The notes under the pieces are model-generated. The model saw nothing but the letters and a program-made list of their open reading frames with translations, was not told the DNA's origin and searched no databases. From Patescibacteria group bacterium UBA6201 (GTDB taxonomy: Bacteria > Patescibacteriota > Minisyncoccia > Phycocordibacterales > UBA918): 64,000 nucleotides of DNA. Location of the stretch: positions 290,948 to 354,947 of the forward strand of contig DISV01000005.1 of NCBI GenBank assembly GCA_002422025.1, given 5' to 3'. Made by a program: the position numbers and the translations under genes. This document shows, piece after piece, positions 2,368 to 51,545 of this stretch. Numbering within the stretch: the stretch's first letter is position 1; every line of letters begins with the position of its first letter.

Positions 2368-3273
2368 TCAAGAACCCATTGCCTCAACACCAGCGGTTAT
2401 TTCAGACACCTCTGCAGTAATGGCTGCTTGACGAGCCTTGTTGTATTTAATAGTCAGACTCTTAATCAATTCCTTGGACTTGTCAGTAGCGTTTTTCATC
2501 GCCACCATACGAGCTGAGTGTTCAGATGCCTTACTCTCAAGTAGTGCGTGATAAATAATAATCGCAACCAATTGAGGAATAAGTGTATTAAGTACCTCTT
2601 CAGAAGATGGTTCAACTAAATAATCAGTAGGTGTTCCAACACTATTTTCTATCTCACTCCACTTTCCTGACTTTGGTTTGATACCATCCATCATTAATTT
2701 AATTTCATCAGGATTGAGTGGTAACACTGTGCGCAAAGTCGGCACTTGCTCGAAAGTTGAAAGAAAGTTCTGGTAGATGATAGATACCTTTTGATACTTT
2801 GGTGACTCGTAGAGGGACAGGACCTTGTCGGCCATGCTAGTAACCTCCACTAAAGAGACGCCGTCAGCAACGTTTATATAATCACCAACTAAAGTAACAT
2901 TCTCTCTCACTGCGTACTCAACCGCCTTGCGGCCAATAGCTAATATCTCGACACTGTCTCCCGCAGCAATAATTTCATCCACTCTTTTCTGCACGGCACT
3001 ATTAACACTACCCGCTAAACCTTTGTCACTGGTCACCATCACTAACAGGTGTTTGCCTTCTGGTCGAACTTCCGCAAAAGGATGCGAGAGTCCGTCCTGT
3101 GAAGCACTGAGGCGTGACAGGATATTAAGTGCCGAGCGCACATAAGGGCGACCGACAAAGGCACGCTCCTGGCTCTTACGCATCTTAACCGCAGACACAG
3201 CCTCCATAGCCTTAGTTACTTGACCAGTTTTCTTGGTGGCAATTATTTTGTTTTTAACTTGTTTTAAGGCCAT
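2368..3273 (-). CDS. atpG: F1 ATP synthase gamma subunit (start placed at MALKQVKNKI, internal to the longest ORF)
   Basis: N-terminus MALKQVKNKIIATKKTGQVTKAMEAVSAVKMRK matches the gamma consensus; lies between atpA and atpD. Confidence 0.9.
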   Translation of the reverse strand: MALKQVKNKIIATKKTGQVTKAMEAVSAVKMRKSQERAFVGRPYVRSALNILSRLSASQDGLSHPFAEVRPEGKHLLVMVTSDKGLAGSVNSAVQKRVDEIIAAGDSVEILAIGRKAVEYAVRENVTLVGDYINVADGVSLVEVTSMADKVLSLYESPKYQKVSIIYQNFLSTFEQVPTLRTVLPLNPDEIKLMMDGIKPKSGKWSEIENSVGTPTDYLVEPSSEEVLNTLIPQLVAIIIYHALLESKASEHSARMVAMKNATDKSKELIKSLTIKYNKARQAAITAEVSEITAGVEAMGS

Positions 3274-3312
3274 GATTGATTTAGTACACGATACACAGCA
3301 GTTGCTTTGCAA

Positions 3313-4878
3313 CTAAGCTGCGTAAAACTGTGCATGTGATTCTTTATAGTCTTTAATTGCCTTATTAAGCTGATCTACTACTTCGTCGGTTAATTCACGA
3401 CCCTTCTCAATAGTGATCATCGTTTCCTTTCGGTCACGAGTGACAAAATCAATAAAGCTTTTTTCTATTTCTCGCACCTTCTCTGGAGTGGTACCTTCGA
3501 AGAGTCCGTTATTAGCACCATAGAGTGACACCACCTGTTCATAAAATGGCATCGGGTTACTTTGATTTTGCTTTAAGAGTTCTACATACTTACGACCAGA
3601 ATCAATACGTGACTTAGTGTCCTCATCTAGGTCACTAGCAAACTGCATAAAGGCTTCTAGTTCACGAAACTGTGCAAGTTCCAAGCGAATCTTTCCTGAC
3701 ACTTTCTTCATCGCCTTAGTTTGCGCCGCACTACCCACACGTGACACAGAAATACCGACGTTGAGAGCAGGACGGATACCCTTGTTAAAAAGATCCCCCT
3801 CCAAGAAAATCTGTCCGTCAGTAATAGAAATAACGTTAGTTGGAATATATGCTGAGACGTCACCTTCCTGAGTCTCAATAATTGGCAAGGCAGTTAATGA
3901 ACCTCCTCCAAGTTCTTTTGAGAGTTTGGCACTGCGTTCCAAAAGACGAGAGTGAAGGTAGAAAATATCTCCCGGATAGGCTTCTCGACCTGGTGGACGG
4001 CGGAGCAAGAGTGACATCTGACGATAGGCATTGGCGTGCTTAGAAAGGTCATCGAATACTACGAGAACGTCGCGACCCTGCTGCATAAAGTATTCACCAA
4101 TAGCAGCTCCTGCAAAAGGTGCTAGGAAAAGTAACGGAGAGGCTTCAGAAGCAGAGGTTGCAACAATGATGCTGTATTCCATTGCGCCAGCTGCTTCAAG
4201 CTTGGCCTTAAGGCTCGCGGTCTTTGAGCGTTTTTGTCCAATCGCTACATAAATACAAATTGGACGTTTGTCCTTCGGTTCATATTTCTGGTTAATTATT
4301 GTGTCGATAGCAATAGTCGTCTTACCAGTACCACGATCCCCGATGATGAGTTCACGCTGTCCACGACCGATTGGAATCATCGAGTCAATGGCTTTAATAC
4401 CGGTATGTAGTGGCTCGTTAACCGCGGATCGATCCATTACTCCGTAAGCAACGCGTTCAATCGGCATTTCTTTTTCAGCTTTTATATCTCCAAGCCCATC
4501 AATAGCTACTCCGAGAGGATTAACCACGCGACCGATAATATCTTCGCTTACTGGCACTGATAAAAGACGCCCAGTTTCCTTTACAACCATACCCTCTCGC
4601 ACTCGGCTTGAGTCACCCAAGATTACCGCCTTTACCGAATCCTCCTCTAGGTTGAGTACCAAACCGTAGAGTTCCGAAGTATCTTCGAGCGTATCCTTGA
4701 GGCTTTTACCTCCAGAAACATCAAAGGCCACCATCTCCATCATCTTGGCTCCCAAGAGACCTTCGATTTCCACGATACCATCAGATACCGCCGATACTAA
4801 ACCGACTCTTTCGGTTTTGGTTTCTGTGGAGAGACCAGCTATTTCTTGTTTTAGTTTTTCTACGATATTGGTACTCAT
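3313..4878 (-). CDS. atpA: F1 ATP synthase alpha subunit
   Basis: GDRGTGKT Walker A and alpha-type C-terminal domain; operon context. Confidence 0.95.
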
Positions 4879-4910
4879 AAATTTTGATCAATTAAAGTTC
4901 TAAGCTGTCG

Positions 4911-5282
4911 TTATTTGATTGAACGACGATACCACGTGAGCAGTTTAGTCTTATGACTATCGTCAATACGCTTCCAATCCTTGGTTAAAATGTGACCCCC
5001 AACAATACTTTTATCCACAATAACGCGAGTGTCTTGAGTCGCTTCAGTTTTTGTAAGAAAAGATTTGGCATCACTCTCCGAAGCTACCACTAGGACAGGG
5101 GCTCCGGTTACACGATCCTCTTCCAAACTACGCAAAAGCGAGCGCAGTATATTTGGATAAATCTTGCTATGGCCGTGCTTCTCAAGCGTTAATTTCAAAC
5201 CACTAAAAATTGACGCCGGAGTAGCTCCTTTCTTTATCAATGCTTTTGTAGCCAACAAATACTGTTTTTGTGTGCTATTCAT
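4911..5282 (-). CDS. atpH: F1 ATP synthase delta (OSCP) subunit, short form (~123 aa)
   Basis: C-terminal half matches the delta consensus (TRVIVDKSIVGGHILTKDWKRIDDSHKTKLL). The start is set at internal MNSTQKQ so the gene only slightly overlaps atpF; the N-terminal domain appears reduced. Confidence 0.7.
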   Translation of the reverse strand: MNSTQKQYLLATKALIKKGATPASIFSGLKLTLEKHGHSKIYPNILRSLLRSLEEDRVTGAPVLVVASESDAKSFLTKTEATQDTRVIVDKSIVGGHILTKDWKRIDDSHKTKLLTWYRRSIK

Positions 5283-7301: not shown

Positions 7302-8015
7302 CTATGCTACCGAATTTGGTGAAAAGGAAACCGAAGCTTCAGGCGTAGTCGCTGGAAGGGTTTTAACTTCCTTATAAAGTAGATACACGTACACTACAGC
7401 TATCGGAGTTAGTAATACTGTGAGTGCAGTTACCAATGCCTCAGTAACTACATGATTAGGCAAAAAGACAGAAATTGTAGAAATAAGCATACTAAGTAGC
7501 AAGACGAATACACTCATCGCTATTAGACGACCAAATATTGCCCACCATTTGCCACGTGTATATTCTCGACTTTTTTTCAAGGACTCCACAATTGCTCCAT
7601 TCTCAAGCACTAAAACAAAAGTGGCAAATGCGAACCAGACAGAAAGAATGATGCCAGGAATAATAAGTAGCAAGAAACCAACCATCATTATAATGGACAT
7701 TAGTAGTGATAGACCGATGTATCGCCAAAAATATGGCCATGCACGTCTATAGGCCTCCTTGGCCGTTATAGAATTATCATTAATAGCTAGAATCAGAGCG
7801 ACTGTCATCAAGACACTAAGGACAACATAAATAAACATCAACACTACATAGACTATAGACTCAGAAGTAATCATTATTCCCGTTGCCTTATTTGGGGCAA
7901 AAAGAGCAGTGAGAAATGAAACTACAATTGGTATAAACAAAATAGATAGGAACAAGAAAAAATTAGCACTCACTATCGCTAATGAATTCTTGAATAGTTG
8001 AATTGGTCCAGGCAT
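7302..8015 (-). CDS. Hypothetical polytopic membrane protein upstream of the atp operon
   Basis: 237-aa ORF with ~6 hydrophobic helices. It is not AtpI-like in size. Confidence 0.5.
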   Translation of the reverse strand: MPGPIQLFKNSLAIVSANFFLFLSILFIPIVVSFLTALFAPNKATGIMITSESIVYVVLMFIYVVLSVLMTVALILAINDNSITAKEAYRRAWPYFWRYIGLSLLMSIIMMVGFLLLIIPGIILSVWFAFATFVLVLENGAIVESLKKSREYTRGKWWAIFGRLIAMSVFVLLLSMLISTISVFLPNHVVTEALVTALTVLLTPIAVVYVYLLYKEVKTLPATTPEASVSFSPNSVA

Positions 8016-8090
8016 ATTTAATGCTTAATTAATATACTTGAATTATAGCACTTTAGGGGTGCGCGGTAGGAGTTTTGCACAGGGATGGAT

Positions 8091-8115
8091 TGGATGACCC
8101 GAGAGGATTCGGTCA
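8091..8115 (-). repeat. Degenerate copy of the tRNA-Ala 3' end (T-arm/acceptor fragment ending TCCA)
   Basis: The 16-mer gacccgagaggattcg (8096-8111) is a perfect direct repeat of 8273-8288 inside tRNA-Ala. The reverse complement reads ...GACCGAATCCTCTCGGGTCATCCA. Confidence 0.6.
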
Positions 8116-8270
8116 CAACTCTGGTGTTTACACACCAGGTCGCGACCTCGCCTCGCTTGCCTGCGGCATCGCTCCGGCCTTCGAATCCTCACGCAAGCAA
8201 AGCAGTTTGCTTGCTTCGGGTCCACATGAAAATCAAAAGCCACACTTGCGTGTGGCTAAGATTTTCTATG

Positions 8271-8343
8271 TGGACCCGAGAGGATTCGAACCCCCCGCCT
8301 CCTCAGTGCAAATGAGGCGCTCTACCAAATGAGCTACGGGCCC
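8271..8343 (-). tRNA. tRNA-Ala (anticodon UGC)
   Basis: The reverse complement reads GGGCCCGTAGCTCATTTGGTAGAGCGCCTCATTTGCACTGAGGAGGCGGGGGGTTCGAATCCTCTCGGGTCCA. It has a 7-bp acceptor stem with the G3:U70 alanine identity pair, D-stem GCTC/GAGC, an anticodon loop TTTGCAC (anticodon TGC), T-loop TTCGAAT and discriminator A. No CCA is encoded. Confidence 0.8.
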
Positions 8344-8351
8344 AGTTAAGT
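8332..8351 (-). repeat. Direct repeat copy 1 (tRNA-Ala 5' end plus 7 bp of 5' flank)
   Basis: agctacgggcccagttaagt occurs perfectly again at 8455-8474. Confidence 0.7.
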
Positions 8352-8389
8352 ACTGAACGAACTAGCTAGGCCACCCTGCTCAAGGTGTA

Positions 8390-8474
8390 GGGCTCATTTG
8401 CACTACGTGCAAATGATTCGAAAGCCTACTAGGCTTTCTCACCCCCACCACATAAGCTACGGGCCCAGTTAAGT
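8390..8474 (-). pseudogene. Decayed tRNA-Ala-derived fragments: inverted anticodon-arm hairpin and a second copy of the 5' end
   Basis: ctcatttgcac, the tRNA anticodon-arm sequence, occurs on the opposite strand inside a hairpin tcatttgcac-tac-gtgcaaatga (8395-8416). agctacgggcccagttaagt is repeated at 8455-8474. No complete cloverleaf can be folded. Confidence 0.45.
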
Positions 8475-8556
8475 GTTGGGCACTTTTATCAGCATTTACT
8501 CTGGTATAAAAGTTCAGATATATTACTGATTTATGCACCTAAAGTCAAAGGGTAAG

Positions 8557-9102
8557 CTACGGCATCAACCAAGGTGTGCTACTACTAAGTGACAAAACGC
8601 CTCCAATACTTAAAGTATTGTCTGGTAGCCAAAATGAAGATTTGGCGACAGCGTTGTCTGACATAACAAGATTTTCTTTGTTCTTAACTGGATAAACCAT
8701 GTCCTCACTAACCACATATATAAAGTGGTAGCAAGAATCGCTATCATCCATGCTAGCGCAATAATGAACCATTGTGCCATCGAGTGAGACCGAAGAGGAA
8801 ACCACCTCTCGATGAAAACCAAATTCAAGATCCTCTTCGGAGCCTTTGGCACTAATTATTCGCTGCCTTTCTCCATTTGTCACAAATAAACCTTCATCGG
8901 TAACAATTGTTTCTACAGCACCATATGCTGAGGCTTGTTGAACTACTCGACCTTCAGACTGACTATTGTCTTCCTCAAAATACTTTGGACTAACGTCATT
9001 TAATTCAAAAGCAATATAGGCAGTAGTGAATCCTATTAAATAAGCTAAACCGATCAATATAGCTTTAGTATGATCAGTTACAGGAACTGTCTTTTTCTTC
9101 AT
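8557..9102 (-). CDS. Hypothetical membrane-anchored/secreted protein
   Basis: 181-aa ORF with an N-terminal hydrophobic anchor (AILIGLAYLIGFTTAYIAF); no recognisable domain. Confidence 0.45.
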   Translation of the reverse strand: MKKKTVPVTDHTKAILIGLAYLIGFTTAYIAFELNDVSPKYFEEDNSQSEGRVVQQASAYGAVETIVTDEGLFVTNGERQRIISAKGSEEDLEFGFHREVVSSSVSLDGTMVHYCASMDDSDSCYHFIYVVSEDMVYPVKNKENLVMSDNAVAKSSFWLPDNTLSIGGVLSLSSSTPWLMP

Positions 9103-10341: not shown

Positions 10342-11488
10342 CGTGGTGTTTTTTAAGAATACTGGCAGGCCCTAAAACACGTACTGGACGGTGACGATCA
10401 TCTTTAACGACAGCCACTACCGGAATTGCTAAATTAAACTTTTTTAGGACAATTAAGGCTATGTTCTTCTGAGCAGTACTGCCATCAACAGCAATCACCT
10501 GCGGTAATGGCCACTCGTCGTGCCCGAGGCGTCTCTCTAACACTTCACGCAAGGCAGCGGTATCGTTAGCTTTATCGACCGAGTTAATCTTAAATTTTCG
10601 GTAGTCAGACCGCCGAATTTCCCCACCTTCAACTACAGTCATCACCCCCACCATATTCTGTCCAGAGAGGTGCGCTATATCGTAAGCTTCGATACGTACA
10701 AAATTTTCATCGCGGTAAATTCGAGAGTCGTCTTTTATTAAAGCAACGTCATGAATATGAGTAAGAGCAAAAATTTTCTTCTTGACTATATTGGCTTCTT
10801 CAAACTTTTGTTCCTTGGCAAAAACTTTCATTTCATTCTGCAGGTCTTTAATGATTTGTTGCTTCTTGCCTTCAAAGAAAAGTCTGATGTGTTTGATGGT
10901 ACGTAAATAATCCTTTTGATTACCTTCAGTTGGATACAAGCCAATTTGGCGATTAAAATCAATTTTGCCACGTGCCATTTTTGACTTCTCGTTTCCAAGT
11001 GGAATTTTGGTGTCATAGAACTGGAACAAACGTCGAACTATTTTCAAAGCTTCTCTAAATAGTTGTCCGCTCGGAAAAGGTCCAAAATGATAGAGAATTC
11101 CGTCCTCATTCATAGTGACCAAGTCTTTACCGCGCACCACCAATACTCGTGGCCACTCTTCGTCGGTAATAACAAGATGATTGTAGCTTTTGTCATCCTT
11201 GGCTAGAGTGTTGTACTTTGGCTTATGAGAACGAATGAGGTTAGTCTCGAGAATCATCGCCTCAAGCACGGAGTCGGTCACTGTTATATCCACCCCTTTT
11301 GCTTCCTTGACCATCTTTTCAATGAGAGCTGAGCGCTTCTCCTTAAGATCAGGAGCAAAATAACTCCGTACTCGGTTCTTAAGTGAAGTGGCCTTGCCGA
11401 TATATAACACTTCCTTGTTCCGCCCAAGGAAAAAATACACGCCAGGCGTATCAGGTAATTTCTTTTTTGCTAAAGCTTCCTTGGTCAT
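10259..11488 (-). CDS. uvrC: Excinuclease ABC subunit C with GIY-YIG, UvrBC-interaction and RNaseH-like domains; reading frame stops before the HhH domain
   Basis: GIY-YIG motif (GVYFFLGRNKEVLYIGKATSLKNRVRSYF). The C-terminal region EAHRFSIGFHRQRR matches the end of the UvrC endonuclease domain, and the stop follows immediately. Confidence 0.8.
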   Translation of the reverse strand: MTKEALAKKKLPDTPGVYFFLGRNKEVLYIGKATSLKNRVRSYFAPDLKEKRSALIEKMVKEAKGVDITVTDSVLEAMILETNLIRSHKPKYNTLAKDDKSYNHLVITDEEWPRVLVVRGKDLVTMNEDGILYHFGPFPSGQLFREALKIVRRLFQFYDTKIPLGNEKSKMARGKIDFNRQIGLYPTEGNQKDYLRTIKHIRLFFEGKKQQIIKDLQNEMKVFAKEQKFEEANIVKKKIFALTHIHDVALIKDDSRIYRDENFVRIEAYDIAHLSGQNMVGVMTVVEGGEIRRSDYRKFKINSVDKANDTAALREVLERRLGHDEWPLPQVIAVDGSTAQKNIALIVLKKFNLAIPVVAVVKDDRHRPVRVLGPASILKKHHDAILLANAEAHRFSIGFHRQRRNRSLF

Positions 11489-11578
11489 ATCACAAGAATA
11501 TACCTCGTGGAGGGTGACGATACAACATTGACGTAAATATTAAAGGCCACGCGACAAATGTCGCGTGGCCTTGGTTCT

Positions 11579-11803
11579 CTAGGTTGGAAGCTGAAGCCTT
11601 TCCTTTTCACGATTCACGACATCGAGAAAGGCTGCAGGTGCCATCCGAGCAGACATCGCCGAGTAGCGAAGGATATCTTCGTCATTAAAAGCATTTTCAT
11701 CTAAGCGCGTCAGATAGTCTTGCACGATCAATCTGAGTGATTGATACCTTTCTAACTCCCGACGCTCTTCTTCAAGATGCTCTTTCTCCTTGTCCACATT
11801 CAT
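11579..11803 (-). CDS. Small charged hypothetical protein (74 aa)
   Basis: ORF between uvrA and uvrC on the same strand; coiled-coil-like and highly charged; no homology recognised. Confidence 0.35.
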   Translation of the reverse strand: MNVDKEKEHLEEERRELERYQSLRLIVQDYLTRLDENAFNDEDILRYSAMSARMAPAAFLDVVNREKERLQLPT

Positions 11804-14791: not shown

Positions 14792-16828
14792 CTATTTCTT
14801 CTTAGCTTTTTTTGCGACTGTTGCTTCTAAAATATTTATCTCGTCGCGAATAATAGCGGCAGTTTCGAAGTCGAGAATGGCTACCGCTTCATTCATCTGA
14901 CTCCTCTTTTCTTTCAAGACTTTCTTGGGATTCTTCTTAAACAACTCCATATCGACAGTAAGCAAGGTATGTACGGTTTCTTCATGCACACTACGAAGCT
15001 GATCAGCAATACTTTTAATCTCCTTCTTGATAGTGGCCGGAGTGATGTTATGTTCTTTGTTGTATGCCAATTGACGATCGCGGCGACGGTTCGTTTCACC
15101 AATTGCATATTCTAATGACTTAGTGATGACGTCAGCATATAGAATTACGCGTCCATTTACGTTACGGGCAGCGCGACCAATGGTCTGAATGAGCGCCGTC
15201 TCACTACGAAGGAAACCTTCTTTGTCAGCATCGAGGATGGCTACCAACTCCACTTCCGGCAAGTCGAGTCCTTCACGAAGCAAGTTAACTCCGACCAAAC
15301 AATCAAACACACCCTTTCTAAAGTCGGTCAAGATCTCAATACGCTCCAAGGTCTCCACATCACTATGGATGTACTTGGTTTTCATCCCCTTTCCTTCTAG
15401 GAACTCAGCTAGGTCTTCTGCCATTTGTTTAGTGAGCACAGTGGTGAGTACACGAGCTCCAGAAGCAATCACTTTTTCTGCCTCCAGGATAAAGTCTTTC
15501 ACCTGTCCTGGATAATCACCCTTCTCCACGATTGGACGAACCTCAATCAAAGGGTCAACTAGTCCGGTTGGGCGAATGATTTGTTCAACCATTTTAAAAG
15601 AAGTGGTCTCTGCCTTTTCATACTCATACTTACCTGGAGTGGCTGAAGTATAGATACGCTGTCCAACCCGCTTCTCAAATTCATCAAATTTTAGTGGGCG
15701 ATTATCCTTGGCACTTGGCAGACGGAAACCGTAATCAACCAGAGTTTCTTTGCGTGCTCGATCACCAGCATACATTCCCCCAATCTGTGGAATAGTGACA
15801 TGTGACTCATCAATCACTGTCAAAAAGTCAGCCGTACCATCAGCCTTATGTGGAAAGTAGTCGAGCAAACTATATGGTGGCTCACCGGCGGAGCGTCCGT
15901 CGAAGTGGCGTGAATAGTTTTCAATACCATTACAATAGCCAATCTCCCTAATCATCGCTAAGTCGTACTCAGTACGACGCTTGATTCGCTCACTCTCAAG
16001 TAGCTTTCCTTCCTTCTTAAACTTCTTGAGTTGTTCATCGAGCTCTTGTTTAATATCCACAATGGCGCGGGCACGCTCAGCCTCAGGTGTCACGAAGTGC
16101 TTAGCTGGGAACAAGTAGAAGGTATCCGGCTCTTCGATAATGGCGCGTGTAGTAGCATCAATCTTAGTGATAGCCGAAACAGTATCTCCTACGAAGTTAA
16201 GTCGAAAAATAACCTTCTCATTAGTTGGCATTATCTCCACAGTATTCCCAATCGCTCGGAAAGCGCCGGGGGTAAGATCAGCCGGTGTTCGTTCGAAGTA
16301 CATAGATACCAAAAGCCGAAGCATCTCTTTACGGTTGATTGTAAATCCTTTTTCTATTTTCTTATGGACTTTTTCGTACTCAATTGGAGAACCAAGACCG
16401 TAGATACAAGACACCGAAGCGACAATAATTACGTCACTGCGGGTCAAAAGAGCTTGAGTTGAGGCGTGGCGTAGACGATCAATTTCTTTGTTAATTTGTG
16501 CCTCCTTCTCGATGAAAGTATCAGAGACTGGCATATAGGCCTCCGGCTGGTAGTAGTCGTAGTATGAAACGAAGTAGTGAACTGCGTTATTAGGAAAGAA
16601 GTCTCGGTACTCCTGCGCCAACTGAGCTGCCAGAGTCTTATTGTGGGCAATCACCAAGGTCGGCTTCTGGATAGCATTAATGACATTAGCAACAGTGAAG
16701 GTCTTACCAGAGCCAGTCACACCTAAAAGCGTCTGATGCTCGGCACCAGCTTTAAGTCCCTCCAAAAGCTTTTTTATAGCCTCAGGCTGGTCTCCATCTG
16801 GAGTCTTATCTGTTGCTAACTTAAACAT
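14792..16828 (-). CDS. uvrB: Excinuclease ABC subunit B (start placed at MFKLATDK)
   Basis: Helicase motifs (GVTGSGKTFT, DESH) and a UvrB interaction domain. The N-terminus FKL..D..P.GDQP.AI matches the UvrB consensus. Confidence 0.95.
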   Translation of the reverse strand: MFKLATDKTPDGDQPEAIKKLLEGLKAGAEHQTLLGVTGSGKTFTVANVINAIQKPTLVIAHNKTLAAQLAQEYRDFFPNNAVHYFVSYYDYYQPEAYMPVSDTFIEKEAQINKEIDRLRHASTQALLTRSDVIIVASVSCIYGLGSPIEYEKVHKKIEKGFTINRKEMLRLLVSMYFERTPADLTPGAFRAIGNTVEIMPTNEKVIFRLNFVGDTVSAITKIDATTRAIIEEPDTFYLFPAKHFVTPEAERARAIVDIKQELDEQLKKFKKEGKLLESERIKRRTEYDLAMIREIGYCNGIENYSRHFDGRSAGEPPYSLLDYFPHKADGTADFLTVIDESHVTIPQIGGMYAGDRARKETLVDYGFRLPSAKDNRPLKFDEFEKRVGQRIYTSATPGKYEYEKAETTSFKMVEQIIRPTGLVDPLIEVRPIVEKGDYPGQVKDFILEAEKVIASGARVLTTVLTKQMAEDLAEFLEGKGMKTKYIHSDVETLERIEILTDFRKGVFDCLVGVNLLREGLDLPEVELVAILDADKEGFLRSETALIQTIGRAARNVNGRVILYADVITKSLEYAIGETNRRRDRQLAYNKEHNITPATIKKEIKSIADQLRSVHEETVHTLLTVDMELFKKNPKKVLKEKRSQMNEAVAILDFETAAIIRDEINILEATVAKKAKKK

Positions 16829-16950
16829 GGTCACAGTGTAGCTGAATAAGGGAAATAAAAAAAGTGTATGACACATTAAGATCACCCGAAATAGCCATGG
16901 TCGCACATTCAGGGCTGAACAACCGAAGACCCTGAACTAGTATTGGCCTA

Positions 16951-18165
16951 TTACAATATATGTCCTGTCAAAATACTCTCCCTCAACTTCTTTGTGAAAT
17001 TTACAATCGTATAAAGATTGTGTATTGAAGCAAGGTGTCCGCCAAGAATCTCGCCGGAACGTAGGAGGTGCGAGAGATATGCTTTGGTGTAGCGTTCACA
17101 CACAAAACAATCACAACCTTCATCAACACGAGAAAAGTCTCGTTGATACTCAGCATTACGTAAATTAGTTTTAACTATTCCCTCTCTCTTATGCTCATAG
17201 ATAGTACCGGTGCGTGCAATACGGGTCGGTGCTACACAATCAAAAGTATCACAGCCCAGTTGTACTCCTTCCATAATGTCTACAGGTTCTCCGATTCCGA
17301 GTAAGTGTCGTGGTTTTTCCTCTGGTAGATTTTCATTGACCACCTTAAGAGCATCCCCCAAATCTTTCTTAGAAAAACTACCACCAATACCAAAACCATC
17401 AAAATCCATCTCTGCCAAAGTTTGTGCGCTTTCTTTGCGCAAATCTAGGAAGCGTCCACCCTGTACCACACCGTAAAGCCCCTGCTTCTTTAAGGCTTCA
17501 TAGTTCTGCTTATGTGCCATTATTGAGCGCTTGGCCCAACGGTGAGTTCTGTCCATCGCCTCCCTCTGGTAATCGTAGTCAGCCGACGGACTGGTGCATT
17601 CATCAAAAGCTACAATGATATCAGCCCCAATAGCGTGCTGTATCTCAATCGAGCGCTCTGCAGTAAAGCGGTGCATCGAACCATCATGATGTGAGGTAAA
17701 AGTTACACCTTCCTCGTCAATCACACAGAGCTTGCCGTGGCTTTCAGCCAAGGTTTTTGAATAGACATTAAGACCGTGAACGATTGGCTTCGCGTCTTCC
17801 TCAACCTCACCGGCCGCAAACTTCGTAACACCTTTACCGAAAGCCGCACCGAGCGAAAAAACCTGAAACCCACCAGAATCGGTCATTAATGGTAGATCGA
17901 GATTGGCAAATTTATGTATCCCTCCGGCTTCTTTAATTGTCTCGTGCCCAGGCTGAAGATAGAGATGATAGGTATTAGCGATAGCCACCTGAGCCTCTAC
18001 TAGGTCTTTTAAGTCTTCTGACTTAAGACTCTTCACTGTGCCTTTGGTTCCCACTGTCACAAAAGCCGGAGTTTCAATGTCTCCGTGTGGAGTATGGATG
18101 ATACCCGCTCTAGCCATAGAGCCAGAGGCGCGTTTAACAACTTCAAAGGAAATAGGAGAGGACAC
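16951..18165 (-). CDS. tgt: Queuine tRNA-ribosyltransferase
   Basis: N-terminus ...ARAGIIHTPHGDIETPAFVTVGT and a C-terminal zinc site CDCFVC...H, typical of Tgt. Confidence 0.9.
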   Translation of the reverse strand: MSSPISFEVVKRASGSMARAGIIHTPHGDIETPAFVTVGTKGTVKSLKSEDLKDLVEAQVAIANTYHLYLQPGHETIKEAGGIHKFANLDLPLMTDSGGFQVFSLGAAFGKGVTKFAAGEVEEDAKPIVHGLNVYSKTLAESHGKLCVIDEEGVTFTSHHDGSMHRFTAERSIEIQHAIGADIIVAFDECTSPSADYDYQREAMDRTHRWAKRSIMAHKQNYEALKKQGLYGVVQGGRFLDLRKESAQTLAEMDFDGFGIGGSFSKKDLGDALKVVNENLPEEKPRHLLGIGEPVDIMEGVQLGCDTFDCVAPTRIARTGTIYEHKREGIVKTNLRNAEYQRDFSRVDEGCDCFVCERYTKAYLSHLLRSGEILGGHLASIHNLYTIVNFTKKLRESILTGHIL

Positions 18166-27688: not shown

Positions 27689-30600
27689 TTATTCAAGACT
27701 CCAGAAGTAGGCAGTAATAGCTCCAATGGTCACTATTAGTGACGGCCAGAAAGCTCCTACCAGTCCGAAGAATACTGCACCAGCTAATAGTAGCAAGGCG
27801 ACAGCCATAAATGTGCTCTGTACTGCCCTCATAGCCATAGTCTCAGGATATTCGTTTCTTCTCCAGAGTGCTACAGCAGAAGCTAGTAACCAGAGAAGCA
27901 CTAGTAGCCAGTAATAATTCTGCCACGAGCTAAGTATGGCTCCTTCAGAATCTTCATCTTCTTCGTTTACAGTCATCTCGGTAATCTCATTCTCTTCTTG
28001 TCCTTCAGCATCTTTTGCTTCTTGTACGAGCTGCAAGTCAGCTTGTGTGATTGAATCACCCAATACAACACCTGATGACTGACCTGCTGGACTTTGAGCC
28101 GAGACATAGGAAGCAAGTAGGAACTCAGCTAGACGATTCTTAATTTGTTCAAGCAAATCGTATATTTCTCCGTCCGTGCTAGCACCAAGTACTCGAGGAG
28201 TAGCACTTCTATTTGTTCCTCCACCTCCTCCACCCCCACCTCCGTCAGTATCAGTGTTAGTTTCAGGGATAACTGTGTTAGTAGTTGGTTCGAAGTCATA
28301 TGCCTCAGTATGAGTATTATTGCCAGTCTTAATACCGATTACAAAGTTATCAATATTACCTGTAAACCCACCTGGATAAGGCTCTCCTACTCGAACACCA
28401 AGGAATGAGTCAGTTGTACGAGTACCTGCGTTAGGGAATGCGGCCTTAATTTGATTCCATGTCTTTGTTACTGAACCAGAGTCACCACCAAGCTCTGCTG
28501 GCCAATTAGCTCCGGAATACTTCCAAAGAGCATTGCCTCCATTTATAGCATCCCACTCTTGCCAAGTATCTGCCAATACAGTGCCATTGTCTCTTGGTAC
28601 ATAAATAAGTCGTCGTTGCCAAGTATCAGTGCCATTAAAGTCAACATTGAAGTGCAAATAAGGTGCTGCATTTACACCAGCGCCGTTTCCAGCCGACTGA
28701 GAGTAGGTTGAGAATTTAAGGTCAGTAATATCAGCCAACTTTACGTTACTGAACTGATAAGTGGCCAAGTTGCGTCGTGCATTGGTACTAGACGCAACCT
28801 CTACAGGCACACTGATTTCAACACTACCTAGACCTAGTAGCACTCCAGCAGGACCAGTCACAAATGAGCCCAAACTGTTGTTGACTCCTTCAGCTCCATC
28901 AATACTTCCTGTCTGATCATTATAGAAGAACCAATTAGTTGATGAGAGATCTTCAGCTTCAACTGTAGTAGTGCCAGAAGTAAATGATGGTGGAGTAGAT
29001 GGAGTGGTTTTGTAGACAATAGTGAATTCATCGCTGCACTCTGATTCATGACCGCCGTTATCGACAGCAATAATACAGAAGTAGTGAGTCCCCTCTCCTT
29101 GGTTAAAGGAACCTGAGCGTGAGTTTGCAGAACCATTGTTCACCGTCCAAGCAGTAGATGTACTGTTGAAAGCAGAGGTAGAAATGTTGTTCCAGTACTT
29201 GTATATGTAGTGACTAAAGTCTGGTTCGGTATTAGCGTCCCAAACTGCGGTACCAGAAACCAACTCGGTTGTGCCACCGTCAGCCACAGGGTTACTGTTT
29301 GAGTCGTTCCATCCTAGACCGGTTGGGACAGCTGGAGTGCCGTTCATTGGGCCTGAACCATCTACATCGTAGTAGTAGTGAACAGGGTCACTCCAACCAC
29401 TAACGTTGCCGGCATTATCAAAGGCACGAACCCAGATGGTCACACCACCTTGTTCAGAAGTTGAAGGAATATGATTGCGAGAAGTGCCGTCTACGTCACG
29501 ACAACCTACCCAATCTCCATCAATAGTTACGTCTGGACAGGTAGAAGCGCTAAACGTATGTCCATCGTCATAACGGTAAGCGATTTGGTAATAGTCGATA
29601 CCGCTAGCATCAGTGACTACAGTCCATTCATTTAGAATCGGAGCAGTTGTAAAGATTTGTTCAGGATTTGGAAAAGTTATTTCTGGTACAGATGGTCCAG
29701 TAGCATCATAAGTAACTACAAAAGGATCAGAGTAGTTAGAACAATCATCAGAGGAATTACAGGCACTGAATGCAAAATAATGAGTCCCCTCACCTTGAGT
29801 GAAATTGTCGTTATACACTCCAAGACTAGATGAGTGAAGTGCTAAGTTGGTTGGATTCCAAGGAGTAGCCTCTTTAAAGACTGACCCGACGATATCATTC
29901 CAATACTTAAGTTGATAACGATTAACATCAAGTGAGGACGAGAGGTCAAAGGTAAAGTATTGCTCTTGAGTATACCCGCCATTAGACACGACTGTATTGC
30001 TCGGAGTTGCAGTGAAGATTGCTGTTGGAATTGTGGGAGTCTCTGTAACTTCACCAAGTTCAAGGTCAGACCAGATAGTTGTGTAACTTTGCCCACCATT
30101 GAAACTATTAAATATAGTCTCATTAAACTGATTGAAATTATGTCCATCAATTATAGAACTGTACGAATGAACAAGACTTCCATCAACAAAAAATTCAAAT
30201 TGATTAGTATATGGGTTTTGTAACACTTCAAGACTTACACTTGTACCATAGGTACTTGATGCCACATCAGTCCAGCCACCATTTGCTGTATCCCATACTC
30301 GAATCCGAGGATTCGCTTCAAGATTTGTAAACTCAATGATTGGCCAAGCCAAAGAACCAGTGGTTGTGGCAGACAAAACGCCCCATAAACCAGCACGCAC
30401 ATCTGTTACAGAACTCCATGAACTGTCGATATACAGATTTGCTTTGACGCTATTATTGCCACTTGGGAGAGTCGCCTTTACTCCTTCCGTTTTATAGTAA
30501 CCTTCAGGACTTGCAGAAGGACCATGTACATTAATAACTAACTGATCGGGTGTAGCAGTCCATCCACCAGTTGGGTTAGTACGGTCAGGCGACCAAGTTA

Positions 30601-31525
30601 ATCCGCCGAATTCTTGTGGTGTATGCACTACCACGAAAATCGTAAAGTGATTAAGTTCAGAAATCGTTACAGTATCTTCTGATGCTTGAACCTGAACACT
30701 ATCATCAGAAATGATATCAGCGTTGGAGAGTTGATCTACACTTTCAGCATACACAATACTTGGGACTTCATTTGCACTAGACGGCAAAGGTAATTCGAGA
30801 TCATAAGCAAACATACCATTCTCCATCGAAGAAGTAATATCGTAAGCAACATTACTTATAGCCCCCAATGAAGCCACCTGTTCGTCAGTCAAAATAACCT
30901 CCTCAATAGATAGACTGCCAGCAACTTCTGGGAGGCTAGTGAAAGTAACTTTTACTTGGGAGTTTTGTGGAGCAACATACGCCACACCTAATTTAACGTT
31001 ATCGACTGTAGCAACACCATTCTCGCCGAGCTGAAGGGTTACTTCTTTATTCCCAGAAAAAAGATCAACTGCTTCTTTTACTATTGCAGAAGCTGCTTCA
31101 ATCACTGTCGAAACAATACCTTTATTTTCCTCATCAACTACATCATCTGAACTAGATGCAACTTCTTCCGAACTAGATGCCACATCTTCTGTAGTAGTTG
31201 CACTTTCGTTTTCATCAGAAATAGTTGGAATATTCTCCACTTCATCAACCCCACTTTCTTCGTTATCAATAATTTCTGTGGCCTCTTGTTGTTCTGCGAC
31301 TTCTTCAGAAGCTTCAACCTCCTCAACAAGTTCCTCAGAATCTTCAACTTGCTCAGAACTTTCCGATACAACTTCTGGAGTTGAAATTTCTGTCGGCTCT
31401 GCATTAACTTCCTCAGCGTAAGTAGTTAACACACCAATCGGCAAAGATGTTACCAAGAGTGAGGCTATAGCTAATAAAGCGGCGGTCTTTCGTAGTGAAT
31501 TTGGGATTCTGTGTGTGTAGTTCAT
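27689..31525 (-). CDS. Giant cell-surface protein (1278 aa): signal peptide, acidic N-terminal region, repeated Ig-like modules, poly-Gly linker, C-terminal TM domain
   Basis: Signal peptide. Internal paralogous repeats (YWNDIVGSVF...GEGTHYFAFSACNSSDDCS / YKYWNNISTSAF...GEGTHYFCIIAVDNGGHESECS). A ~200-aa module shared with the 32969..34984 protein. A GGGGGGGG tract followed by TPRVLGASTD. Three C-terminal TM helices. Confidence 0.7.
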   Translation of the reverse strand: MNYTHRIPNSLRKTAALLAIASLLVTSLPIGVLTTYAEEVNAEPTEISTPEVVSESSEQVEDSEELVEEVEASEEVAEQQEATEIIDNEESGVDEVENIPTISDENESATTTEDVASSSEEVASSSDDVVDEENKGIVSTVIEAASAIVKEAVDLFSGNKEVTLQLGENGVATVDNVKLGVAYVAPQNSQVKVTFTSLPEVAGSLSIEEVILTDEQVASLGAISNVAYDITSSMENGMFAYDLELPLPSSANEVPSIVYAESVDQLSNADIISDDSVQVQASEDTVTISELNHFTIFVVVHTPQEFGGLTWSPDRTNPTGGWTATPDQLVINVHGPSASPEGYYKTEGVKATLPSGNNSVKANLYIDSSWSSVTDVRAGLWGVLSATTTGSLAWPIIEFTNLEANPRIRVWDTANGGWTDVASSTYGTSVSLEVLQNPYTNQFEFFVDGSLVHSYSSIIDGHNFNQFNETIFNSFNGGQSYTTIWSDLELGEVTETPTIPTAIFTATPSNTVVSNGGYTQEQYFTFDLSSSLDVNRYQLKYWNDIVGSVFKEATPWNPTNLALHSSSLGVYNDNFTQGEGTHYFAFSACNSSDDCSNYSDPFVVTYDATGPSVPEITFPNPEQIFTTAPILNEWTVVTDASGIDYYQIAYRYDDGHTFSASTCPDVTIDGDWVGCRDVDGTSRNHIPSTSEQGGVTIWVRAFDNAGNVSGWSDPVHYYYDVDGSGPMNGTPAVPTGLGWNDSNSNPVADGGTTELVSGTAVWDANTEPDFSHYIYKYWNNISTSAFNSTSTAWTVNNGSANSRSGSFNQGEGTHYFCIIAVDNGGHESECSDEFTIVYKTTPSTPPSFTSGTTTVEAEDLSSTNWFFYNDQTGSIDGAEGVNNSLGSFVTGPAGVLLGLGSVEISVPVEVASSTNARRNLATYQFSNVKLADITDLKFSTYSQSAGNGAGVNAAPYLHFNVDFNGTDTWQRRLIYVPRDNGTVLADTWQEWDAINGGNALWKYSGANWPAELGGDSGSVTKTWNQIKAAFPNAGTRTTDSFLGVRVGEPYPGGFTGNIDNFVIGIKTGNNTHTEAYDFEPTTNTVIPETNTDTDGGGGGGGGGTNRSATPRVLGASTDGEIYDLLEQIKNRLAEFLLASYVSAQSPAGQSSGVVLGDSITQADLQLVQEAKDAEGQEENEITEMTVNEEDEDSEGAILSSWQNYYWLLVLLWLLASAVALWRRNEYPETMAMRAVQSTFMAVALLLLAGAVFFGLVGAFWPSLIVTIGAITAYFWSLE

Positions 31526-42615: not shown

Positions 42616-44700
42616 ATGGAGTTATTTTCATATCTTGGATTACACACCGCATACCTCTTTGTGTTTTCTGTTAGTTTAGGTTTAGGTATTGGTACATCTG
42701 TATTGAGTCATAGTCTTTTTTTACTTGCTGCTAAAGACAAAAAAGTGTCACGCGATGAGTTTAAATTACTAAACCTATCACGCAAAGTGAGTTGGGTGGC
42801 AATCCTTATGTATGGTTTCAGCGGTATCGGTCTTTTTACCCTTGCCTACGAATCTATGATTGAGCTTGGAATATTCTATGCCAGCATGACGGTCGCTGTA
42901 ATTCTAGTCACAAATGAAGTGCTGTTTTCGTTTTGGCATTTGCCACGTATACAAAACACCAAAAATGGTGTGGCTGTAGTTGATGCTTTTGTTTTAGTAA
43001 GCGGTGCTGTCTCTGCCGTGTCATGGATATTTTTAATGTTCCACCATGTCATTTATCGAACCGATATTGGATACTTTCCATTCATGACCCTATACACAAT
43101 AGCGGTCATTTTGGCACTACTACTCACTTGGTTTATATTCAGAAATTCCGTACACAAACATGACGGCCTTATACTCAAACGCTCTTTATTGACTGCAGTT
43201 TTGCTAACAATTATTTTTATTGGCGCTTGTTATTCCGATATTAATCTAATAACCAAAACGATTAAGGTTGAGGAAGTGGTGCCTCCAATATCAAGTGATG
43301 CAACATACACTATTGATGATGTGGCCCTCCATAACAATTCTGAGGATTGTTGGCTAATTATAGATAAGAAAGTATTCAATGCCACCGAAGCGTCACGCCT
43401 ACATCCAGCCATGTTCAACTGCGGTGAGGATGTGAGTGAGAACTATCATATAAATCATGGCGAGACTATTCGTGACAAGATGATGAAGTTTTATATAGGA
43501 GAACTTAGTGACGGGAAAGGTATCACAAATGTCGATGTACCATTTACAAAAAACCTTACCCTGGAACCATATCGTGAACTATATGTAGATGAAGGATCCT
43601 GGAATCCACATAACCTGATGTTAGTGGTGGAAAAGGACGCTGAGAAGCTTCTAGCAATTGACGGAACTACACACGAAGTAATTGGACGTGTCCACAATGT
43701 TGGTTTTCAGCCACATACATCAGTCTTTTCTTCAGATGCGAAGTTTATGTACATCATCTCGCGCGATGGTTGGCTAACAAAAATAAGCCTTGAAACACTT
43801 GAACCAATTAAATCAGTGTTGGTAGGTGAGAATTCTCGCGGTACTGCGCTGACCGATAATGACAAATACATTGCGATTGGCAATTACGCACCGGGAAATC
43901 TAGTGATTCTCGATACTGATACGATGGAAATCCTCAAGACTATTGCACTTAATGTCACAATAGATGGTAAAGAGATTGAGTCGCGAGCAGGTGCAGTAGT
44001 CGAAGATGGTAACAGAATTATCGTAGCCTTAAAGGATGCAAATAGCGTATGGGCCATTGATACTGACCAGTCGGATTTTCCAGTCACTGATAAATTTGAA
44101 AACATTGGCGAGAATGTACCTGCACTACATGACGCCTTCCTTACTCCCAATGGAGAATACTACATAGTCGCATCCCAAGGTTCAAAGACTGCCTGGGTAC
44201 TTGATTTAACAACAATGAAACCAATCGCTGAGATAGAGACGGGAGAAACACCTCACACCGGCCCTGGAGCTGCCTGGGGCGACTACATCTACGTTCCAGC
44301 TCTCGGAGAAGGTTTAATAACAGTTATTGATACTAAAACCTGGAAGCCGGCGAAGTACATAAAAACAGGTGGGCCAGGACTATTTGTGCGCAGTTACAGC
44401 AAAGATCCATCGTATCCATATGTCTGGGCCGATACTGCCTTTGGCGATTATAAAGATGAAATATATGTGATTGATGCAAGGATTAACGAAATCGTTGAAA
44501 CAATTGTCCCAGTCGAAGGCGAAAGCTCATGGCACCCTGAATTTACCTACGATGGTAAGTCTGTCTACATCGTTTCTCAAACAGCCAACGAAGTAGAAGT
44601 ATACGATGCCTACACCTTCGAAATAGTTAAAAGAATTGAAGCTAATACTCCATCAGCAATATCTAATGTTGGTCTTCGAATCGAGGAGCCTGGACTCTAA
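42616..44700 (+). CDS. Membrane protein with N-terminal polytopic domain, cytochrome b5-like heme-binding domain and C-terminal YVTN-type beta-propeller
   Basis: About 6 TM helices (1-230). A cyt b5-like core (DVALHNNSEDCWLIIDKKVFNATEASRLHPAMFNCGEDVSENYHINHGE). Repeated beta-propeller blades of cd1-nitrite-reductase/YVTN type (KYIAIGNYAPGNLVILDTDTMEILKTI...). Confidence 0.6.
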   Translation: MELFSYLGLHTAYLFVFSVSLGLGIGTSVLSHSLFLLAAKDKKVSRDEFKLLNLSRKVSWVAILMYGFSGIGLFTLAYESMIELGIFYASMTVAVILVTNEVLFSFWHLPRIQNTKNGVAVVDAFVLVSGAVSAVSWIFLMFHHVIYRTDIGYFPFMTLYTIAVILALLLTWFIFRNSVHKHDGLILKRSLLTAVLLTIIFIGACYSDINLITKTIKVEEVVPPISSDATYTIDDVALHNNSEDCWLIIDKKVFNATEASRLHPAMFNCGEDVSENYHINHGETIRDKMMKFYIGELSDGKGITNVDVPFTKNLTLEPYRELYVDEGSWNPHNLMLVVEKDAEKLLAIDGTTHEVIGRVHNVGFQPHTSVFSSDAKFMYIISRDGWLTKISLETLEPIKSVLVGENSRGTALTDNDKYIAIGNYAPGNLVILDTDTMEILKTIALNVTIDGKEIESRAGAVVEDGNRIIVALKDANSVWAIDTDQSDFPVTDKFENIGENVPALHDAFLTPNGEYYIVASQGSKTAWVLDLTTMKPIAEIETGETPHTGPGAAWGDYIYVPALGEGLITVIDTKTWKPAKYIKTGGPGLFVRSYSKDPSYPYVWADTAFGDYKDEIYVIDARINEIVETIVPVEGESSWHPEFTYDGKSVYIVSQTANEVEVYDAYTFEIVKRIEANTPSAISNVGLRIEEPGL

Positions 44701-48614: not shown

Positions 48615-48797
48615 GTATAAGAAAATGATGTGGAGAAGAGATACGGACACGAAAGATAGGCCCTGACAAGTACACATTGCCCCACCTAGTTGAAGAGACT
48701 AGTTAAGATAGGGCATTTTTTTCCAAATTGACCTAGTTTATTGCCACACCTGCGTTGGTATTCAACATACATATACGTTATGATAACGACCGCATAC

Positions 48798-48872
48798 GGA
48801 GGGTTCGCATAGTGGATGAGTAGCAAAACATTTTGCTACTCATCCGGTCCCGAGTGAAGCGAGGGATTGTCC
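48798..48872 (+). pseudogene. Decayed tRNA-Ser copy: 18-nt 5' end identical to tRNA-Ser, 28-nt perfect hairpin inserted after the D-loop GG, degenerate T-arm, no 3' acceptor
   Basis: tacggagggttcgcatagtgg (48795-48815) is a perfect direct repeat of 48964-48984. A hairpin atgagtagcaaaa-ca-ttttgctactcat occupies 48816-48843. cgagggattgtcc resembles the tRNA-Ser T-arm cgagggttcaaatcc. Confidence 0.45.
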
Positions 48873-48966: not shown

Positions 48967-49053
48967 GGAGGGTTCGCATAGTGGCCTAGTGCGCCGCCTT
49001 GGAAAGGCGGTATCGGGGAAACTCGATCGAGGGTTCAAATCCCTCACCCTCCG
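48967..49053 (+). tRNA. tRNA-Ser (anticodon GGA), class II with long variable arm
   Basis: GGAGGGT-TC-GCAT-AGTGGCCTA-GTGC-G-CCGCC-TTGGAAA-GGCGG-TATCGGGGAAACTCGATC-GAGGG-TTCAAAT-CCCTC-ACCCTCC-G. It has a 7-bp acceptor stem, a GG in the D-loop, anticodon GGA and T-loop TTCAAAT. No CCA is encoded. Confidence 0.8.
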
Positions 49054-49387
49054 CAGATGAACGAAGTGAGACAAGGTGGGTGAAAGAAACAGTCTGGGTG
49101 AGTAAGTGTTGCACACTTCCACAAGACTCATTGAGATAGTTATGACCAACGGGAATAAATATCCAATGAGTAGACAGCTCCTGTAAGGAGACTGTTTCTT
49201 GGGATTTGAAAAGGTTGCCCGTTGTTTTGGGAATACTTGGACTAATATAACTATAATCTGTATTGAAACTATAAGTTTCAAATCTCTCAACTACTTATAC
49301 ACACCCCACCTTTACACACCTCAAAAAATGTTTCGAGAAGAGTACAATATAGATAGCACGAAGTTATTAACATTAACTTAATGAATT

Positions 49388-51153: not shown

Positions 51154-51507
51154 CTATACTGAGAGACTAGTTATCAGCTTATTAAGCATTTTCCGTACTA
51201 CAGTTGTCTGCTCCTGTATTCTATCAAATTCTGCGCCTCCTACTAAACTTAACTTTTTAGAGATAATAAGCTGCGTTTCTAATTCAGCACTGGACCCATA
51301 CGAAATACGAAGGAAGCGAACAAAATCTCCACTACTCTTCCTGGCATGACCCTCAGCAATATTCGATGGTATTGATACAGCACTTCTTCTCATTTGGTTA
51401 ACTAGACCGAATTTTTCACTATCAGGAAAATCGGCAGTTACTGTATATATCAATGTAACTAATTCAATACTTCTCTGCCAAACTAGAAGGTCTTGATAAA
51501 TTTCCAT
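51154..51507 (-). CDS. Four-helix-bundle protein of the rRNA intervening-sequence (IVS)-associated family (start placed at MEIYQDLLVWQ)
   Basis: MEIYQDLLVWQRSIELVTLIYTVTADFPDSEKFGLVNQMRRSAVSIPSNIAEGHARKSSGDFVRFLRISYGSSAELETQL matches the TIGR02436-type four-helix-bundle family. Confidence 0.7.
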   Translation of the reverse strand: MEIYQDLLVWQRSIELVTLIYTVTADFPDSEKFGLVNQMRRSAVSIPSNIAEGHARKSSGDFVRFLRISYGSSAELETQLIISKKLSLVGGAEFDRIQEQTTVVRKMLNKLITSLSV

Positions 51508-51545
51508 AAATTTTGTTACGTACTGCGTCCCAACGTGCTGCGTAC

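Follow-up and report, generated by a model that had tools for sequence, protein, structure and literature searches.

We analyzed the non-coding region around the tRNA-Ala(UGC) gene in a 64,000-nucleotide (nt) stretch of DNA (the window) from the bacterium UBA6201 (contig DISV01000005.1), a chromosomal stretch of the Patescibacteria, or candidate phyla radiation (CPR), with about 38% GC. The module downstream of this tRNA is a copy of a previously undescribed, conserved structured family, here called type A, which is found downstream of tRNA genes in Patescibacteria. Its members covary and are linked to tRNA genes by strand and position. Furthermore, this unit and a second module upstream of the tRNA are present in some relatives and absent from others, and at strain level the sequence is replaced exactly at the tRNA 3' end. 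The modules may be small accessory non-coding cassettes that are attached to a tRNA gene through an att-like repeat, restore that gene and code for a folded RNA on the tRNA strand; we give this reading about an even chance of being right.

A covarying family linked to tRNA genes by strand and position

ARAGORN and the Rfam tRNA model agree that the tRNA-Ala gene is intact, and its sequence is identical in four relatives (L006, L010, L087 and L095; L numbers denote the collected loci). An earlier reading of the region, made from sequence only, had described tRNA-derived debris around this gene in GC-rich spacers. The repeats that it listed are real. The 16-nt direct repeat of the tRNA 3' end is exact (8096-8111 and 8273-8288) and matches tRNA positions 56-71. 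The 20-nt direct repeat of the 5' end with its flank (8332-8351 and 8455-8474) is also exact and grows to 28 nt with 2 mismatches (8324-8351 and 8447-8474), covering 8 nt of leader and tRNA positions 1-20. Each of the two has exactly 2 occurrences in the 64 kb, even at 2 mismatches, and the chance expectation from 100 shuffles is 0.00. Direct tRNA repeats that bound an insert, a feature of integrated elements, are present at both ends of the gene. An inverted copy of the anticodon arm (8305-8316 and 8393-8404; 12 nt, 100% complementary) lies inside a hairpin (8394-8403/8407-8416), and an inverted copy of the T-loop and T-stem (8180-8193 and 8277-8290; 14 nt) is 93% complementary. The GC content is 0.51-0.61 over 8050-8400, compared with 0.29-0.42 in the flanks. 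One inverted repeat had been missed; in its 30-nt arms (8216-8245/8250-8279) a stretch farther downstream is complementary to the tRNA 3' end and trailer, and the terminator hairpin (8238-8257) is at its tip.

For comparison, 80 loci were collected through Ddl and every tRNA in them was scanned for copies of itself; closer relatives were reached via the neighbouring 181-amino-acid (aa) protein. The closest genomes in the Ddl search were metagenome-assembled genomes of the Paceibacteria/Parcubacteria type, with at most 58% identity. Three self-copies recur across the 80 loci, all downstream of the tRNA: positions 65-76 in antisense at a distance of about 43 nt, positions 54-64 in antisense at about 80 nt and positions 56-74 in sense at about 150-190 nt. 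These copies match the species' own tRNA in L008, L009, L010, L013, L014, L015, L021, L035 and L043. The same pattern follows tRNAs for Ala-GGC, Pro, Trp and Thr.

Compensatory changes occur at 20 of the 24 consensus pairs in an alignment of 13 type A units. The covariance model R1, which was built from this alignment, gave 33 matches in 1.02 Mb of Patescibacteria DNA with scores of up to 99 bits; the match in the window covers 8098-8192 (74.8 bits, E 4e-16). Over the 33 matches 89.3% of the cells are paired, as against 62.3% in shuffles and 29-50% when the partners are slid, and double changes are found at all 24 modelled pairs. Thirty of the 33 matches lie 33-290 nt downstream of a tRNA (Ala-UGC, Ala-GGC, Pro, Gly or Arg) in the same orientation, and two of the three exceptions (L054 and L010) adjoin decayed tRNA 3' ends. 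In L006 and L087 the arms of the unit have drifted from the tRNA, yet they still pair with each other. Cores at separate loci of one genome (L014) differ.

Units also occur in arrays of up to three, each closing with the same tRNA 3' repeat (L086, L087, L012 and L014). The array in L086 consists of a tRNA-Pro, a terminator, a unit of a second family (type B, see below), a repeat, a terminator, a type A unit, a repeat and a terminator. Its type A unit shares with the Ala unit of the window an identical stretch of 28 nt inside helix P4. This locus was found in the second of two metagenome pattern scans; the first gave no match, which may be because the last base of the pattern lies one past the end of contig L002. 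An Rfam search with type A returned no matching family, and a literature search found no prior description of a tRNA-linked cassette family.

The helices of type A contain 49 G:U as against 12 A:C combinations. This excess indicates that the folded strand is the tRNA-sense strand, and the asymmetry favours a single strand of that sense. The same counts led us to reject for type A the opposite-strand reading, in which the unit would be convergent with the tRNA and share its terminator; for type B it may apply.

The type A unit of the window (8096-8223, minus strand, about 128 nt) has a multi-branched predicted fold of -74.1 kcal/mol with a z-score of -7.5. Over 8040-8270 the z-score against shuffled sequences is -9.0 on the minus and -4.7 on the plus strand. 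The order on the tRNA strand is tRNA, trailer, terminator-like hairpin, 5' strand of P1, P2, 5' strand of P3, core and sense copy (Table 1). A single uninterrupted sense copy of the tRNA from the T-loop to the 3' end provides the 3' strands of both P3 and P1, and this arrangement, built from each species' own tRNA sequence, recurs in many relatives. The antisense segment of P1 follows each species' own tRNA end and trailer, and its 5' strand often extends into the trailer; in the window this strand and the 5 nt before it (8223-8227) can also pair with the tRNA 3' end and trailer. Hairpin P2 is kept despite differing sequence in L009, L010, L013, L014, L015, L033, L035, L043 and L093. Helix P5 has a conserved G:U pair, and its tip, GAGCGNAGYGA, is conserved in most members and differs in the copy of the window. 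The tandem G-A loops of P4 and P5 lack the 3-nt bulge of a K-turn, and we therefore do not claim one. Small open reading frames (ORFs; 8043-8243, 8075-8332 and others) were dismissed as spurious, since they overlap the tRNA and covarying helices; no conserved peptide follows the GGAG-N3-AUG in P4.

No non-coding RNA (ncRNA) family in Rfam accounts for the flanking modules. The tRNA model (RF00005) found nothing in 7900-8700 besides the tRNA-Ala gene, even at E up to 10, and ARAGORN found no second tRNA there. Thus the suggestion of a tRNA-like structured RNA cluster holds in that the region is structured and fails in that the modules match neither a tRNA, a transfer-messenger RNA (tmRNA) nor any other Rfam model. 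ARAGORN reported no tmRNA, standard or permuted (RF00023, RF04321); the permuted model reached only 14.2 bits, with a gathering threshold of 47, over the T arm of the tRNA itself. Signal recognition particle RNA, RNase P, 6S, Y-RNA-like RNAs and known ribozymes gave no Rfam match. Group I introns have been described in the anticodon loop of Patescibacteria tRNAs, e.g. at 35/36 (PMC13011429). Here the tRNA is uninterrupted, and the group I model finds nothing at E up to 10.

Gain, loss and replacement of the modules

In the relatives found via the 181-aa protein synteny is kept and the tRNA flanks differ. L095 has neither the upstream module nor the downstream unit, and its promoter -10 element is only 18 nt from the tRNA. 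L087 carries an upstream module that is about 86% identical to that of the window, together with three downstream units; the core of one of these is about 84% identical to the core in the window, and its arms mismatch their own tRNA but pair together. The 181-aa protein of L091 is the same as that of L093, and the two loci agree at 98.8% of positions along 3288 nt, a similarity that ends exactly at the tRNA 3' end. Beyond this point they are unrelated for 733 and 223 nt, respectively, and thereafter 100% identical. After the last copy of the tRNA 3' end in L091 come the trailer and terminator that L095 has directly behind its tRNA, which indicates that this copy is the displaced original 3' end. 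Empty and filled alleles with a displaced flank, as in integrated elements, are hence found among the relatives.

The sequence-only reading, which had named residual att sites of a deleted element as one possibility, is supported in part. For the direct repeats this idea is supported by the displaced 3' end in L091 and by a recombinase island in L054. It does not extend to the spacers, given that the downstream one is a conserved, covarying fold whose core recurs. In L054 a large serine recombinase (Resolvase, Recombinase and Zn ribbon domains; 16082-17641, plus) abuts the 3' end of tRNA-Ala, and an island of about 6 kb now lies between the tRNA and the trailer, terminator, type A unit (11527-11676, minus) and repeat that formerly belonged to it. 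On the 5' side of the same tRNA, a small GIY-YIG nuclease gene (17638-17886, minus) is inserted between a displaced 5' tRNA fragment and the intact gene. As a separate observation, L087 has genes for a DUF5343 protein and a Swt1-like HEPN (HEPN_Swt1) protein between its unit array and the UPF0259 gene (3850-5108, plus), a possible defence or toxin pair that is absent from the window, L091, L093 and L095.

The upstream module, called X, behaves in a similar manner. The promoter-like TTGACT...TAATAT of the window also precedes the tRNA in L087, L091, L093 and L095. Module X is about 86% identical in L087 and L088, is absent in L095, and has a shorter insert in its place in L091-L094. Its hairpin b consists of one sense and one antisense copy of the anticodon arm. 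The equivalent outer 5' copy in L087 follows a promoter-adjacent leader, as in the empty site L095, and this is the position expected of a displaced original 5' end. Among 108 tRNAs, 9 have copies of their 5' end on the upstream side, and these copies always stop within the D-loop (positions 16-22). The outer fragments of L030 and L040 derive from an older tRNA gene; they are complementary to each other as parts of that gene and are nested around the intact tRNA.

Two kinds of short sequence are inserted in old tRNA fragments and units of L030 (about 11030-11520, plus) and L011 (about 10965-10985, minus). One is a GC-rich palindrome (CCTGCCTGCCGGCAGGCAGG); the other is a hairpin element of about 48 nt (CCCGATTTTCC...GGATCCGCGA). 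Both are present at several places and look like separate small insertion sequences.

The sequence of the tRNA-Ala region is base-for-base identical in four contigs from different samples and assemblers, and these independent assemblies rule out an assembly artefact. For contigs of several independent metagenome assemblies (L001-L005), the end points (8196, 8139 and 8101) fall within the downstream module. One assembly contains two adjoining contigs, of 233 kb and 126 kb, whose overlap is exactly 8101-8225, and this suggests at least two contexts for the downstream unit in the sample concerned. The exchange of accessory modules next to the tRNA may explain why assemblies break in this region.

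A link to phages was rejected. A pattern for the conserved core had 18 matches in IMG/VR, among which only one locus (L098) is a true unit array. This contig, filed as viral, has at least three type A units in an array at its end (2844-3319, minus). The array adjoins host-type genes (epimerase, cytidine deaminase and GDSL lipase), and for this reason the contig is probably host DNA and not a virus.

Type B units and the surroundings in the window

The only other tRNA in the window, tRNA-Ser-GGA (48967-49054, plus), has the same layout as tRNA-Ala. Its leader and positions 1-18 recur as a perfect 21-nt copy 169 nt upstream (48795-48815), and copies of its T-loop, both antisense and sense, are located downstream. 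The upstream side has a structured 150-nt spacer with a perfect 15-bp hairpin (48814-48845). An AT-rich unit of the type B family follows the tRNA (Table 1). The type B core consists of a long helix, a conserved UGUACUG joint and a short hairpin with a GUA loop, and its model, R2, gave 14 matches. Directly after the end of tRNA-Ser, within 49055-49196, there is a GAACGAAGUGA loop motif.

The window contains housekeeping genes such as the F-type ATP synthase operon, ddl, uvrA/B/C, groES/EL and RNase J. Three further genes were noted. The first (42616-44700, plus) encodes a 694-aa protein with a cytochrome d1 (NirS-like) haem domain and a cytochrome b5-like domain, which is unexpected for a small Patescibacteria genome. 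A 140-aa protein (51154-51576, minus) belongs to the 23S rRNA intervening-sequence protein family and is weakly similar to bAvd; no reverse transcriptase is nearby. The third is an ORF of 1278 aa without a Pfam match (27689-31525, minus).

Table 1. Features of the tRNA-Ala region, in the order of the tRNA strand, and the type B unit of the tRNA-Ser locus.
Feature	Positions	Strand	Basis or remark
Gene for 181-aa protein	8557-9102	minus	one flank of the tRNA-Ala region
Promoter-like site (TTGACT, 17 nt, TAATAT); would drive upstream module and tRNA	8520-8548	minus	consensus scan; function predicted
Displaced copy of tRNA 5' end (8 nt leader and positions 1-20)	8447-8474	minus	26 of 28 nt match 8324-8351, 20-nt core exact
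Body of upstream module X, with hairpin a (8420-8438) and hairpin b (8394-8416)	8352-8446	minus	inverted repeats; fold z-score -3.6
Second copy of 8-nt leader, directly 5' of tRNA	8344-8351	minus	part of the 20/28-nt direct repeat
Intact tRNA-Ala(UGC), G3:U70 pair, no encoded CCA	8271-8343	minus	ARAGORN; Rfam RF00005, 64.1 bits
Trailer and intrinsic-terminator-like hairpin (stem 8238-8257, U-rich tail)	8228-8270	minus	terminator scan; orthologous hairpin in L093
P1 5' strand (GACCCGA), antisense to acceptor 3' strand of tRNA	8216-8222	minus	30-nt inverted repeat; folds
P2 hairpin, 9-bp stem, 4-nt loop	8193-8214	minus	predicted folds
P3 5' strand (GAGGAUUC), antisense to T-stem 3' strand and T-loop of tRNA	8183-8190	minus	inverted repeats; P3 pairs covary
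Type A core: helix P4 (8150-8178, conserved GGA/GA internal loop) and helix P5 (8111-8147)	8111-8182	minus	model R1; covariation; fold
Direct copy of tRNA positions 56-71; 3' strands of P3 and P1; att-like distal repeat	8096-8111	minus	exact repeat
Junction with conserved chromosomal DNA (CTGTGCAAAACTCC...TATAAT), upstream of UPF0259 gene	8040-8095	minus	homology to L091, L093 and L095 starts again here
Gene for UPF0259-family membrane protein	7302-8015	minus	other flank of the tRNA-Ala region
Type B unit, AT-rich	49197-49291	plus	model R2, 75.3 bits

What the modules may be

Taken as accessory cassettes, the two insertions would bracket tRNA-Ala, vary between strains and each be joined at a short repeat of the tRNA itself, so that the tRNA gene stays intact. 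The downstream cassette (8096-8270) would bring a new trailer and terminator and then the structured RNA on the tRNA strand. In this RNA the core of P4 and P5 would be closed by P3 and P1, with antisense 5' strands and, as the 3' strand, the sense copy from T-loop to 3' end; this copy may double as the distal att-like repeat. The upstream insertion (8344-8474) would mirror this at the D-loop, with a small fold after a displaced copy of the 5' end (positions 1-20). We infer that recombination at the repeated segment of the tRNA brings cassettes in and out. The repeats once described as debris are not products of decay and belong instead to two accessory non-coding modules, the downstream one a member of a conserved family. 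Decaying tandem tRNA duplicates would leave the perfect antisense copies and the conserved non-tRNA core without explanation.

The type A fold is presumably RNA, transcribed through read-through or directly together with the tRNA. The strand bias of its helices speaks for RNA. Strand and position fit a tRNA-ncRNA arrangement in the 30 co-oriented cases. Five units have no terminator after their tRNA (L011-Pro, L040-Pro, L006-Pro, L043-Ala and L030-Pro), and terminators are present after some units.

Several observations weigh against the cassette reading. A good terminator-like hairpin separates tRNA and first unit in the window and in about 26 of the 33 cases, and no promoter is visible for the downstream unit, so that transcription of such a unit would need read-through. 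The distal repeat in the window is not followed by the ancestral trailer, and the att-like interpretation here rests on the relatives. The 64 kb of the window contain no gene for a recombinase, a reverse transcriptase or a transposase; the insert has no real ORF, hence no recombinase gene within the element, and a recombinase island at the same tRNA is found in L054 only. The type B helices show no G:U bias (12 G:U and 12 A:C). Finally, tRNA-Ala is over-represented because the loci were gathered through ddl synteny, and alignments fitted to a covariance model lean toward the structure of that model.

The covariation of the fold strongly disfavours the view that the region is scar tissue only, i.e. 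leftovers of deleted integrase-bearing islands with chance hairpins, and we consider this view very improbable. Repeats from T-loop to 3' end and from 5' end to D-loop do fit integration into tRNA genes, a process with partial tRNA genes as documented products (PMC9897764), and real islands exist at this tRNA, with the serine recombinase in L054 and with DUF5343 and HEPN_Swt1 after the unit array in L087. However, all 24 pairs covary across genomes whose Ddl is only 35-58% identical to that of the window, the same core recurs after many different tRNAs, and the arms stay complementary after drifting from the tRNA. It also seems unlikely that the units are host ncRNA genes which arose by tandem tRNA duplication. 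They would then be a derived tRNA-like RNA, with P1 and P3 stacked like the acceptor and T stems, P2 as the D arm, maturation by tRNA enzymes, and repeats kept alike by gene conversion. The helix topology is indeed that of the top half of a tRNA, with a continuous 3' strand and a 5' strand broken by a hairpin; GAGGCG-GGGUCG in the core resembles the variable loop and T-stem of tRNA-Ala, some units adjoin the tRNA without a terminator, and many have their own terminator after them. This origin is difficult to reconcile with the failure of the tRNA covariance model to find the unit, with the A3:U70 pair of P1 in place of G3:U70 and the frequent pairing of the discriminator base, and with the T-loop bases, which are paired and not looped. 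The same core subfamily moreover follows different tRNAs in different organisms (Ala in the window and Pro in L086, with the shared stretch in P4), and the empty sites and strain-level replacement speak against it as well.

The fold could also act as single-stranded DNA, as an attC-like folded recombination site that recreates the duplex from T-loop to 3' end, with cassettes arrayed at the tRNA as at attI. We regard this as distinctly unlikely. It would account for the arrays of up to three units with the same closing repeat, for the inverted copy at a roughly fixed distance upstream of each repeat, for structure that is conserved beyond sequence and for the terminator that often blocks transcription into the unit. 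Because DNA hairpins tolerate G:T wobbles, the strand bias of type A fits single-stranded DNA too. Yet there is no integron-type integrase in the window, and the array-adjacent proteins that were checked, in no systematic scan of the other loci, are the serine recombinase, GIY-YIG, DUF5343 and HEPN_Swt1. Of the T arm, the duplex would restore no more than the loop and a single half-site. The units also have a large branched core that is conserved, contains tandem G-A loops and does not resemble attC. Furthermore, the cassettes are gene-less, and five units are positioned for obligatory co-transcription with the tRNA.

Accessory cassettes joined to tRNA genes resemble several known systems. In integron cassette arrays each unit ends in the same short repeat, with an inverted copy upstream, hairpin folding and structure kept over sequence, and the tRNA-linked units share the closing repeat, the inverted copy and the conservation of structure. 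They differ in that the anchor is a tRNA gene and not attI, IntI was not found, the cassettes have no ORF and the hairpin encloses a large conserved branched core. Judged on RYYYAAC / GTTRRRY core sites and IntI, an integron attC array was rejected; the arms are tRNA-derived and vary with the tRNA, and the window has no tyrosine recombinase. Among integrated elements, cis-mobilizable elements (CIMEs) are reportedly listed as well. As in integrative elements and CIMEs, a direct repeat of the 3' part of the tRNA lies beyond the insert, the gene is regenerated, the site is strain-variable and islands use the same tRNA. In contrast to these, the insert is about 100-200 nt long and gene-less, its interior is a covarying fold and not decaying DNA, perfect antisense tRNA copies are carried, and mirror insertions occur at the D-loop on the 5' side. 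A miniature inverted-repeat or other insertion-sequence derivative was rejected as well, because type A and type B have one copy each in the 64 kb and the arms are derived from the target and are not element-specific.

Further ncRNAs downstream of tRNAs include the bacterial small RNAs from 3' external transcribed spacers and the tRNA-like end of MALAT1/mascRNA. A precedent is given by the plant dicistronic tRNA-snoRNA genes (cited in PMC12045711, references 66-67). The cassettes are similar in that the unit is downstream on the same strand without its own promoter, and in five relatives no terminator intervenes; they differ in having a closing helix built from copies of the neighbouring tRNA, a terminator that is usually in between, and units that are accessory and swapped between strains. 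TIGR arrays of CPR bacteria have units of about 36 nt or simple stem-loops beside a Tas (Nop-domain) gene, and their spacers A and B do not pair and target adjacent positions (PMC12045711). They share with the cassettes the bacterial group, the arrays of small structured RNA units, G-A motifs that recall box C/D, and segments that match both strands of a DNA target. The cassettes, however, have no true box C or box D sequences, and their arms copy identical and not adjacent target positions. A TIGR-Tas array was rejected, since the arms of the unit pair together and no Nop-domain protein is encoded in the window.

A bolder and rather doubtful version of the cassette reading is that of a new class of mobile, gene-less structured cassettes which home to tRNA genes, each with a replacement tRNA end and a closing helix copied from the target. 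Their RNA or single-stranded DNA would mimic the tRNA from T-loop to 3' end for a recombinase or reverse transcriptase acting in trans, and they would be similar to integron cassettes or to short interspersed nuclear elements (SINEs), anchored on tRNAs in ultra-small symbiotic bacteria.

If confirmed, these results would add two structured RNA families that are absent from Rfam, in a major and poorly understood group of bacteria. They suggest that the tRNA flanks in the tiny, streamlined genomes of Patescibacteria hold non-coding cassettes with a fast turnover and not junk, and they may explain why metagenome assemblies of these bacteria break at tRNA genes. The sense and antisense arms copied from the adjacent tRNA raise the question of how a gene-less element recognizes or regenerates its target, and the answer could reveal a new mechanism of recombination or RNA processing.

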